Assembly (NCBI GenBank): GCA_965655095.1
Contig: OZ296648.1
Coordinates: forward strand, 54,932,001-54,996,000
Reading direction: 5' to 3'
From: Haplodiscus bocki
Lineage: Eukaryota
DNA: 64,000 nt
The notes under the pieces were generated by a model. It worked only from the letters and a program-made list of their open reading frames with translations. It was not told where the DNA came from and did not search any database. Below, one piece after another: positions 2,718-6,400 of this stretch (position 1 is the stretch's first letter; every line of letters starts with the position of its first letter). A program made the translations under genes and the position numbers.

Positions 2718-3479
2718 TTAGCCGTTCCTTTTCGTTACCTTATCGTTTCTAACACAAACTGTTATACTTACATCCGTTTGTTGGAAAACTTCGTGTAAAA
2801 ACTTGTGCACTATTGGTGAGTGAAGTTTGTCTAGGCCGCATCCAAGATCTGGTAGTCGAATGTTTTTCACGCGATGAGCCTGGGCGTGATCACGCATCAG
2901 AATAAGGCTGTCTTCCAGTGAGTCATAAAAGGGTTTTTGGAAGTATTTTTGTTACGTTACCAAATTGTATATCCATCTTCGTGAATAAAGGTCGTAGTAT
3001 GCAAACACTGATCTAGGTTTTAGTATTGTGGAGGTTTGATCTTTCATTTGCGAGTAGAGTCGGTTGAATCGCTCGGCGATACCTGCTCCAATGAAAAAAT
3101 CGGAAGAAACACAGTGTCCCATGCTAGGTGAAGTTACAAAAAGATCACCTTCTAATATTGTCACTTGTGAGGTTTTCTGGTGTTCTTGTATTTCGTTTAA
3201 ATCTGTTCTAGTTTTCTTTTTAGTTGTTCCTTCTTGGGTTGCTCCTGGCCTTTGTACAAAATGCATTTGTTGGCGTTGCTGTCGACGGTTATTGAGAAGA
3301 TCCACAAAGTTTCTTGCGTCGACTGACTGTCCTTGGTTTGTGCGTTTACGGTTGCGGGTCTTCTGGAATTGTCCTGCCACTTCAAGAACGCGTTCAGCTA
3401 AACTGTTGGTCTGCTGCTCTTGTAGCCGCGTTGAGCGTCTCGGTGCTGTATTGATTCCCTCATATTCATCAGATTCTTC
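2718..3479 (-). pseudogene. TARG1/OARD1 (Poa1p-like) macrodomain with linker, probably the C-terminus of Pol; premature stop at 2952-2954
   Basis: Reading through the TAA in frame gives QVTILEGDLFVTSPSMGHCVSSDFFIGAGIAERFNRLY...RWIYNLVT*QKYFQKPFYDSLEDSLILMRDHAQAHRVKNIRLPDLGCGLDKLHSPIVHKFLHEVFQQTDVSITVCV. This is collinear with the TARG1 motifs GDLF, HCIS, GAGIA, IYYLITK, KPTY, PRIGCGLD and EEVF...ITV. Confidence 0.9.
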
Positions 3480-6400
3480 TCAAGAGCACGGCAACTGAGC
3501 TGTAAGGTACGGTGGTGGCGTAAGTATTTTTCTAGGTTGTTCAAGTCTTGGAGCTTGGGTAATTGTTAACAGTTCTGCTGTCGCAGGTGCGGCGTCGGGT
3601 TGGTTGATGATTTGTTCGGCTGGTTGAGGTTGTACCCAAGTAAATTGAGACTCGAACTGGGCTATCAAAGTTAGGAATTTCCTTTTCAGCTGCTATGCGG
3701 TCATTGTCCAGAAGAGAAGGAAGACCGTGGTCAAAAAGATCTTGTTCGCCTCGATAATGTCCCAGAGTTGGGTCTGTCTGGAAGTTGTCGGAATTGATCT
3801 CGTCTATGTCCTTTACCTGGTATTGAAGCTTGATCGGGCGTAGTCTAATTCGGTGAACAATTTGGGTATAGTTTGTTCCAACTTTTCTGATGAGATAATT
3901 CGAGTCGGTCATCACTTTCTCAACTCTATACAGAGCAAACCATTAATGGATTAGTTTAAGGCTGAAAGCAGATTGTTCTGTTAGTCGAGGGTTTAACAAA
4001 AGGCAGTATGTGTTTGCAGTTAGTGGATTGGCCCTGGCTTTCTGGTCATAATTCCTTCTGTATCTGATTTTACCAGGCATTCTTTTGTACTTTCGAATAT
4101 TTTCAACATCTCGTCACATAGTAATTCCACAAAGTCGTACTTGAAGGCTGATTTCTGAATACAGTTACTAAAGAAGCGAACATCCATGGGCTTCACGGGG
4201 TCTCTTCCATGGAAATAACCGTTGGTGCACATCCAATTGACGTATGATAAGATGTGTTGTGGATGAACGTTGCTATGTTGAGGAATTTGGGCCAATTGGT
4301 GAACGAATGGTTGCTATTGAGTTTCAAAATTCTCGTTAGGGCTGCATGTGACCTTTTCACTACTCCAATTGTTTATGGGTGTTTCAATGATGCATGAGAA
4401 ATTTTTATATCTAGTAATCGGTTGAGTTCGTGGAATAAGTCTGAAACAAACGGGGTTCCCAAGTCGGAGAGAATATCTTGTGGTATGTAACTGTGTTGAA
4501 ACATAATGGAGACTAAGGCTGTTGCAACTGAGACTGCACTGATTATAGTCAGTGGTACCGCAAAAAGGTATTTGCTGAAGACGTCAATAGATGTCAGAAC
4601 GTACTTGTATGGTGATGGAAAAGGTCCCAAAATGTCTATCTGCATGAGGTGTCCTGGGAAAGATTTAAACGTCGAAACCTCTTGTAGTGGTTTTCTAAGC
4701 TTTGAGGGTTGTATTTGCTTAATTTGCAGACATGTGGAACAGTTTCTGATATAGTCTGCGATTATTTCCACATAGTTCGGACAAATTTTTCTGAATTCTT
4801 CAGTTGTTCGCGTAAATCCCAAGTGTCCTCCAGTTGGAGAGTTGTGTATTCTGTACATGATTTCTTTTAGTATTGTTTTCGGTACACATAATTGTTTGTA
4901 CAAAATTGTTCCATCGTGGGCAAAATATCTTCTGTAGAGTAATCCGTTTTCTATAAATAGTCGTCGAAACTGTTTGAGGTACTTCTGTTCTTTTCCTGTA
5001 GAGTAGATGTTTGCTGAAGGTGTGGAATTGGTTTCCAACCATTTGGTAACTTTTGTTATCACCCGGTCAGAATTTTGTTCCTTTTTCAAGTTAGTTATTG
5101 TTGTTTCCAATTGGGGGTAGTCATCCATCGGGTTTATGTGTTGAGTGGCGTTATTTTCTGTTTTCTTCTTGTATTACGTCAACTGTAATTCACAGTTTGG
5201 TGTCAAATTCTTGAGTTGATTCACGGCTTGATCATAATTTCCAGACTGTTTAAGTGTTATCAGTGTGTTTATGTCTACTACTTGAAGTAGGTCAACAGGT
5301 AAGTTGTCTGCGAAGAGCGCAATGATCTGGCAGCTTTGCTCGTACATCTACTTCAAATTCTCTGACTGAAATTCTGTCAGTCAGGTTCAATTCAATGGTT
5401 TCGTTCGGGTTTGATTGAAAGCGAGATAGAAAATCTGCTGCAGCGTTTGCTTTTCCTGGAATGTTAGTTACCACTATATTGAATGCTGTAACTCTGTCTA
5501 CGTAATTCCATAGAGATTGGGGGGATTGTTTTGGCTGGGAAGAATCTAGTCAAACTTTTGTTGTCAGTGAGTATGAGTACTGGTTTCTCAGTTCCCCATA
5601 TGAAATGAGAGAATGTTTCCAAGGCAAAGAAAAGTGATAAAAATTCCTTGCAATATATTGACATTTTTAGCTGCGCTGTATTGAAGACTTTCGATCCAAA
5701 TGACACCGGTGCATAAGATTTAAGTTTCTTCTTTGTTGTTTTTGACGTAATCTTCTATCATCAATACGAATCCGCTCGAGTGATTACTAGCGTCACATAG
5801 AATGGCATATTGAAGTCCTGGTTGTGCTAGTGGAAGAGTATTTCGAAAGCCTTTTTGATCTCTTCTGTAATGTCAAATGAGACATTTTTCCGCAAACATT
5901 TGTAGAAAGGTATGCGGTGTTCATTCAGATTCGGGATGAAACTGCGGAAAAAATGTAGGAAGCCTATTAGCCTTTTTACTTGTTTCACTGATTCGGGTAT
6001 TTCCAGTGTTGTCAGGAATTCTTCTATTTTTCCCTTTTCTGGTTGTAGGTCTTCTATTGTTATGACATTTCCAGGAAAACTAACTTTTTCTGATCCAAAA
6101 ATACATTTCCCTGATGATAGTTTGAGTCCTGATCTGCGTAAGCATGCGAGCATGAGTCATAAATTGGGTATAAGTTGTTCAACTGATTCTACTCCACATC
6201 CGATATCATCCATGAACTGTGTGAAAACGTTCGCTGAAAGGCATGGTTCTAAGTAGTTTCTCACGAAAGCACTGAAGCCTGTTACTGATCTGTTGAGACC
6301 TCTAGCTAATCTCTGGTAAGCCATAGTTCTACAAGCGTAATTGAAAGCAAGCAATTGTACTGATAGTGGGTCAGCCATTTGTACGCAATGGTACGCTTGA

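Follow-up and report, generated by a model that had tools for sequence, protein, structure and literature searches.

The minus strand of positions 2718-8330 in a 64,000-nucleotide stretch of Haplodiscus bocki DNA (contig OZ296648.1, positions 54,932,001 to 54,996,000 of the forward strand; hereafter the window) is a decayed Ty3/gypsy element whose Pol ends in a macrodomain of the TARG1/OARD1 type. Ten predicted natural proteins from six 90% clusters have one uninterrupted frame that leads from the C-terminal region of integrase into the same domain, bearing out the proposal of the initial annotation that the macrodomain is fused after the integrase. We give an even chance to the reading that the domain is a Pol-borne ADP-ribose eraser, which would protect the cDNA or the proteins of the element.

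Structure of the gypsy element

The element reads protease, reverse transcriptase (RT), RNase H, integrase zinc finger, core and C-terminal domain, the PR-RT-RH-IN order of Ty3/gypsy elements. Its features are listed here (P numbers denote proteins from our searches).

2718-2720, minus: terminal Pol stop, TAA, shared in position with the ends of P0002 and P0017
2754-3170, minus: TARG1/OARD1-type macrodomain, last Pol domain (phmmer to PDB 4j5r/2eee, E 4e-22)
2829-2843, minus: GxGxD loop (GCGLD), Asp125 equivalent intact
2952-2954, minus: in-frame TAA stop where TARG1 has its catalytic Lys84, inactivating the domain of this copy
3171-3632, minus: low-complexity linker, a Pro-rich half and then a basic half, colinear with P0017 residues 654-807
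3480-3482, minus: private stop in the linker, TGA
3631-3643, minus: frame break between integrase tail and linker (tblastn frame switch; indels in other copies)
3835-3930, minus: integrase C-terminal domain (Integrase_p58_C, E 4.6e-4, under Pfam's cut-off)
4388-4885, minus: integrase zinc finger (H2C2, E 1.9e-10) and rve core (E 6e-10)
5527-6435, minus: RT and RNase H remnants (profile matches)
6780-7055, minus: aspartic protease (E 2.8e-5)
7233-8314, minus: broken gag-like frames upstream of the protease (weak DUF1759, E 0.009; multi-copy depth)
8321-8700, minus: probable 5' LTR by sequence, ending in CA at 8335; depth is high to 8684 and then falls

The first 182 residues of the sister Pol P0252 have no match among the RT and RNase H remnants at 5527-6435. 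Beyond the putative 5' LTR stands a word starting with TGG, which by convention we take to be primer-site-like; there are no tRNA genes in the window with which to match it. No second LTR or LTR pair was found within positions 1-9500. Strand skew runs from gag to the left edge of the window and fades past 8500, so the 3' LTR may lie outside the window. Between Pol and the JmjC-type gene described below, positions 1900-2700 are A-rich on the minus strand, with short words repeated two to three times by eye.

The remainder of the window holds other repeats and a host gene. A high-copy repeat at 9019-9686 has many loose ends at 9151 and 9446 and is probably a short interspersed or DNA element, and a broken hAT-type transposase lies at 10020-11068 on the plus strand (Dimer_Tnp_hAT, E 0.002). 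Exons of a host tyrosine-kinase-type gene occupy 11594-19249 on the minus strand (PK_Tyr_Ser-Thr, E 4.8e-25 at 18884-19249), and the 511-residue low-complexity frame at 11594-13126 may be part of it. Three LINE elements lie at 37140-49326; each has endonuclease and RT, and two have PHD-finger ORF1 frames. The kinase exons and the PHD-type LINEs would fit an animal host. The minus strand of 51100-57450 has many short frames with no Pfam matches, and a motif near 55900 presumably resembles Helitron Rep.

The macrodomain of the window copy

The best match of the macrodomain in the structural database was human TARG1/OARD1 (C6orf130; PDB 4j5r, 2eee). The translation of 2721-3170, with X at stops, aligned to human TARG1 residues 1-139 (E 4e-22), a homology that spans the entire domain and places it among TARG1-like macrodomains; the Pfam Macro profile by itself was weak (E 0.21). 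It is identical to the macrodomain of the open-frame relative P0017 at 100 of 138 residues. In the TARG1 alignment the X of the stop at 2952-2954 coincides with the first Lys of the TK motif, so the TAA does stand on the catalytic Lys84 codon, as annotated, and the Asp125 equivalent is indeed read intact in GCGLD. The published TARG1 pattern TKx(30,35)Px[IL]GxGxD, running from K84 to D125 (PMC6397177), fits the window copy only with X allowed at the Lys. A strict match was found in 13 of the 23 retro-borne proteins tested, including P0002, P0017, P0019 and P0188, and nine others miss the pattern through truncation or single changes.

Another letter stands at position 2954 in all the depth of four public runs, drawn from a single study with no more than two samples, and at position 3481 in most of it. 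The window letter at 2954 is thus seen in none of the run depth, and a private mutation and an assembly error both fit.

As the initial annotation had it, 3480-3692, the linker and the macrodomain share one minus-strand frame, interrupted solely by TGA 3480-3482 and TAA 2952-2954. The frameshift that it placed near 3670 lies instead at about 3631-3643: tblastn puts P0017 residues 506-650 on 4065-3631 and residues 654-957 on 3632-2721, and in the depth of the four runs the indels of other copies cluster at 3634-3643. The open reading frame annotated at 3480-3668 is therefore coding in the macrodomain frame only over 3480-3632. Mending this break joins the macrodomain to the integrase tail only, not to the catalytic core. 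Since further frame breaks near 4065, 4187-4214, 5325 and 5518-5537, plus stops, split the tail from the core, the window copy is dead throughout.

An open frame from integrase to macrodomain in relatives

A search of longer proteins gave 6 matches among 97 candidates, and cluster look-ups together with representative and region searches gave more. By cluster, the ten proteins with an open integrase-linker-macrodomain frame are P0002, P0011 and P0017; P0005 and P0019; P0006; P0048 and P0188; P0252, the one member examined of a 25-member cluster; and P0159. RT, RNase H and integrase stand in the same ORF as the macrodomain in P0188 and P0252. The Pol of these relatives reads openly into the macrodomain, in P0188 and P0252 from RT onward. 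The ORF of P0017, which is colinear with the window at 74-79% identity, begins in the RNase H tail, and none of the ten extends from protease through macrodomain. Some 220 residues separate the macrodomain from the preceding integrase C-terminal domain.

The remaining family members end or begin at scattered places in the linker, like decaying copies. Because the breaks in relatives are scattered, we rejected a macrodomain ORF set apart by a conserved stop, and an artefact of spliced gene prediction was rejected because P0017 is codon-for-codon colinear with the window (145 + 304 residues). Neither a conserved stop nor absence of the domain, either of which would have spoken against the annotated fusion, was found in the relatives. 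Metagenome scans with P0002 and P0107 yielded zero confirmed relatives, the Atlas had no usable match for P0017 residues 540-957, and a fold model of linker plus macrodomain was unusable (pLDDT 37).

Conservation of the macrodomain and its linker

Conservation, judged on protein sequences, was counted over 16 family rows, with fragments and the window row excluded. K84, T83, H32 and C33 are kept in all 16 rows and S35 in 15, while D125 is kept in 14 (one row has His and one is too short); L/I21, I/L44 and P118 are also retained. The relatives thus have Lys at the TAA codon of the window, the state for which the initial annotation had advised looking. Among all matches K84 is found in 133/133 and D125 in 131/133, an invariance that is little specific because the search partly selects for these residues. 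In the adenosine pocket D20 is Asn in 12/16 family rows and Asp in 2/16, compared with Asp in 107/133 other matches, and Y150 is Tyr in none of the 11 family rows that cover the position; Asn20 and Cys150 occur in 17/133 and 24/133 of the other matches. Judged by these residues, the catalytic side seems preserved and the adenine side changed. Because the adenine pocket differs from that of TARG1, ADP-ribose binding may be weakened or changed. The family domain is like human TARG1/OARD1 in keeping T83-K84, GxGxD125, H32, C33, S35 and P118; it differs in being C-terminal in a retrotransposon Pol, in having mostly Asn for D20 and lacking Y150, and in being a predicted enzyme.

Of domain and linker, the macrodomain is the more conserved: those of P0017 and P0019 are identical at 90/137 residues (66%) and their linkers at 30/65 and 44/85 (46-52%). 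Between P0017 and P0188 the macrodomain is identical at 63/138 residues (46%), and the linkers give no alignment above the level of shuffles (190 of 300). The linker, 150-230 residues long and low in complexity, is unrelated between sister families; in P0017, 77-78% of its residues promote disorder. Short basic words in the linkers may resemble chromatin-tethering motifs. The family macrodomains are basic, with a net charge of +6 to +13 (n=9), where the median of 131 others is +4.

An antisense JmjC-type gene

A second gene stands on the opposite strand to Pol.

1078-1761, plus: antisense JmjC-type dioxygenase gene, broken by three stops and with the first HxD His replaced at 1453-1455

Homologues of this gene fall into 22 clusters, all on long ENA contigs. 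The Pfam JmjC profile matched 10 of 11 aligned homologues at E <=0.1, a weak signal (best E 1.4e-5), and the first family member stayed under the cut-off (E 5.9e-4). Among the 59 homologues examined, 36 cover both motifs of the HxD...H iron triad and 31 of these have it intact; it is broken in the window copy. By profile and iron triad together the family classes as JmjC dioxygenases, and the top Atlas match was JmjC (0.95), to generic JmjC clusters. The protein had no PDB sequence match, and its fold model was unusable (pLDDT 36).

Comparing 24 Pol contigs with 57 JmjC contigs, we found an exact length match for ten of the former, where 0.004 would be expected under a log-uniform assumption; 9 of the 22 JmjC clusters were expanded for this comparison. 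The equal-length matches of the P0002 cluster, four in number, all fall in one JmjC cluster, and 4 of the 5 found for the P0005 cluster fall in another. Permuting the subfamily pairing gave 3 of 2,000,000, for a pattern defined after the data were seen. The other 14 Pol contigs, including all three of the sister families P0048, P0188 and P0252, have no JmjC contig of equal length. The JmjC-like gene thus seems, on indirect evidence, to travel with the integrase-macrodomain family subfamily by subfamily, and the pairing put forward in the initial annotation finds indirect support in these lengths. Several JmjC clusters have no listed Pol partner, and the gene may occur in other element families too.

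The strand skew from gag to the left edge is consistent with the JmjC region being part of the element. In depth, that region reaches about 1/10 of the Pol level. Low depth as a sign of unique flanking sequence was considered and dropped, as summed depth is not copy number and JmjC homologues are 47-71% identical. Directly upstream of the gene, 887-1009 is an AT-rich tandem-like repeat with units of 12-25 nucleotides.

It is possible, if unlikely, that macrodomain and JmjC protein form a pair that removes silencing ADP-ribose and methyl marks from host chromatin at or near element copies. Their co-occurrence by subfamily and the largely intact iron triad would fit such a pair, as would the report that mammalian SIRT6 ADP-ribosylates KAP1 in silencing L1 (PMC4695847). 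However, the JmjC protein has no PDB match and only a sub-threshold Pfam score in the member shown, the three contigs of P0048, P0188 and P0252 have no JmjC counterpart, and a Pol domain, arising only after expression, is ill placed to undo silencing. A gypsy family of Phalaenopsis likewise has an extra 2OG/Fe(II) dioxygenase ORF, described as an AlkB-type m6A demethylase (PMC9289625), whereas the gene here is JmjC-type, antisense, macrodomain-paired and predicted from sequence.

Position of the domain in other gypsy lineages

Among 58 longer proteins scanned, drawn from the best 150 representatives, four pair retroelement domains with a TARG1-type domain (P0107, P0176, P0118 and P0066). These, and one protein that extends one of them, carry it as follows.

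P0107: after integrase plus a long acidic stretch
P0066: after protease
P0118: after RNase H, in the RH-IN interval
P0187: lengthens the P0118 architecture to RT-RH-macro, likewise in the RH-IN interval
P0176 (XP_048515211.1, Athalia rosae): two macrodomain-like repeats, flanked by RNase H and the integrase zinc finger, in a gypsy Pol of an insect

The RT-RH regions of these lineages are just 23-29% identical to those of the window clade. A tree of 35 rows chosen from 168 supported the post-integrase clade at 83/82 and the pairing of P0187 with P0066 at 99/98, and set P0107 apart. A single clade of all retro-borne domains, a group that includes two rows added once the tree had been seen, was not rejected (p-AU 0.07). 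The position of the domain thus varies across gypsy lineages, and its repeated capture is only likely, since a single origin was not rejected. P0187/P0118 and P0066/P0062 are two lineages with closely related macrodomains, placed after RNase H and after protease, which suggests that the domain may have moved between elements or positions.

Retroviral dUTPase is found in Gag-Pro, between RNase H and integrase, and C-terminal to integrase (PMC4531489). It too is a captured nucleotide-handling enzyme that occupies several polyprotein places, including the RH-IN and post-integrase ones; its fold and substrate are unrelated, and here the third place is after the protease, not in Gag-Pro. By analogy only, a domain that tolerates three Pol places would behave like this packaged accessory enzyme.

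The variable position also bears on the targeting role first suggested for the domain. Under that reading it would remain on integrase as a reader and bring the integration complex to DNA breaks or to ADP-ribosylated chromatin, much as a chromodomain does at methyl marks. The domain follows integrase, taking the position of chromodomains, both in this clade and in P0107, which is unrelated; the part of chromodomains in targeting is established (PMC9289625). Yet the post-protease and RH-IN positions elsewhere need no integrase tether and so weaken this role, the catalytic pair is retained while the adenine pocket drifts, an active eraser would strip its own mark, and the linker is long and turns over. 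We therefore find targeting improbable. Chromoviruses do resemble this clade in having an extra chromatin-related domain at the integrase C-terminus (PMC9289625, bioRxiv 10.1101/2021.11.30.470311); the domain here differs in carrying enzyme residues and in its distance of some 220 residues from the integrase C-terminal domain. No chromodomain matched in any Pol scanned, so these elements do not class as chromoviruses.

Discussion

The protective eraser, to which we assign even chances, fits the conserved catalytic pair. Under this scenario a Ty3/gypsy clade, as its sequences indicate, captured a TARG1-type macrodomain as the final domain of Pol. Being the last domain of Pol, it would be made together with Pol and, on the usual course of the gypsy cycle, probably enter the particle. 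It would then travel with the replication complex and work as an ADP-ribosyl hydrolase, either attached to integrase or released by the protease, and may strip ADP-ribose added by host PARPs to cDNA ends or bases, to the integration intermediate or to element proteins. Human TARG1, for which K84 is required, clears ADP-ribose from Glu/Asp, thymidine and DNA terminal phosphates (PMC8501950), and DNA ends are modified by PARP1-3 (PMC11102865). Free cDNA ends and the gapped integration product would be plausible substrates. The macrodomain would thus be an accessory "cleaning" enzyme comparable to retroviral dUTPase, and the antisense JmjC protein a second, separate accessory.

The least probable reading is a non-catalytic one, a basic nucleic-acid-binding appendage or tolerated passenger, which the altered D20 and Y150 sites, the basic net charge of the family domains and the frequent loss of catalytic residues in viral TARG1-like homologues (PMC4245714) would favour, but against which stand K84 in 16/16 rows and the retention of the domain over six clusters whose linkers have diverged past recognition.

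Of the interpretation offered by the initial annotation, the in-frame fusion, the lysine in relatives and, indirectly, the JmjC pairing hold, and the idea of targeting is weakened by the domain positions. Extra domains in gypsy elements are already known, among them chromodomains, AlkB, chromatin-domain fusions (bioRxiv 10.1101/2021.11.30.470311) and those of the planarian element Burro (PMC6431247). A macro domain in an LTR retroelement has precedent in fish epsilon-like ERVs (Basta et al. 2009); as PMC4977317 describes them, these are additional ORFs in retroviruses and not a gypsy integrase fusion. Neither a TARG1-type integrase fusion nor a macrodomain-JmjC pair appeared in the literature searched, a partial sample without Repbase, CDD notes, subscription journals or supplements, and the accessible text of PMC12730594, PMC13524379, PMC3391268, PMC4299795 and PMC4245714 contained no retroelement macrodomain. 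How new the fusion is may also depend on the TE-fusion tables of bioRxiv 10.1101/2021.11.30.470311.

More speculatively, animal hosts may ADP-ribosylate retrotransposon cDNA or proteins as a defence, against which several gypsy lineages captured TARG1-type erasers at three Pol places and the present clade added a JmjC protein, making two erasers. We hold this broader scenario to be doubtful, though worth stating, and the literature searched contained no ADP-ribosylation defence against gypsy elements. Captured enzymes reveal the pressure on an element, and a TARG1-type domain kept at the integrase end through deeply diverged subfamilies, and elsewhere in Pol in further lineages, points to ADP-ribosylation as a force on LTR retrotransposons, for which we found no description in the same literature. 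As the domain is small and expressible, it allows a direct test. Were it a targeting module after all, integrase would carry a reader of some mark that is not methylation. More generally, the family hints at elements that bring their own tools against the chemical defences of the host.
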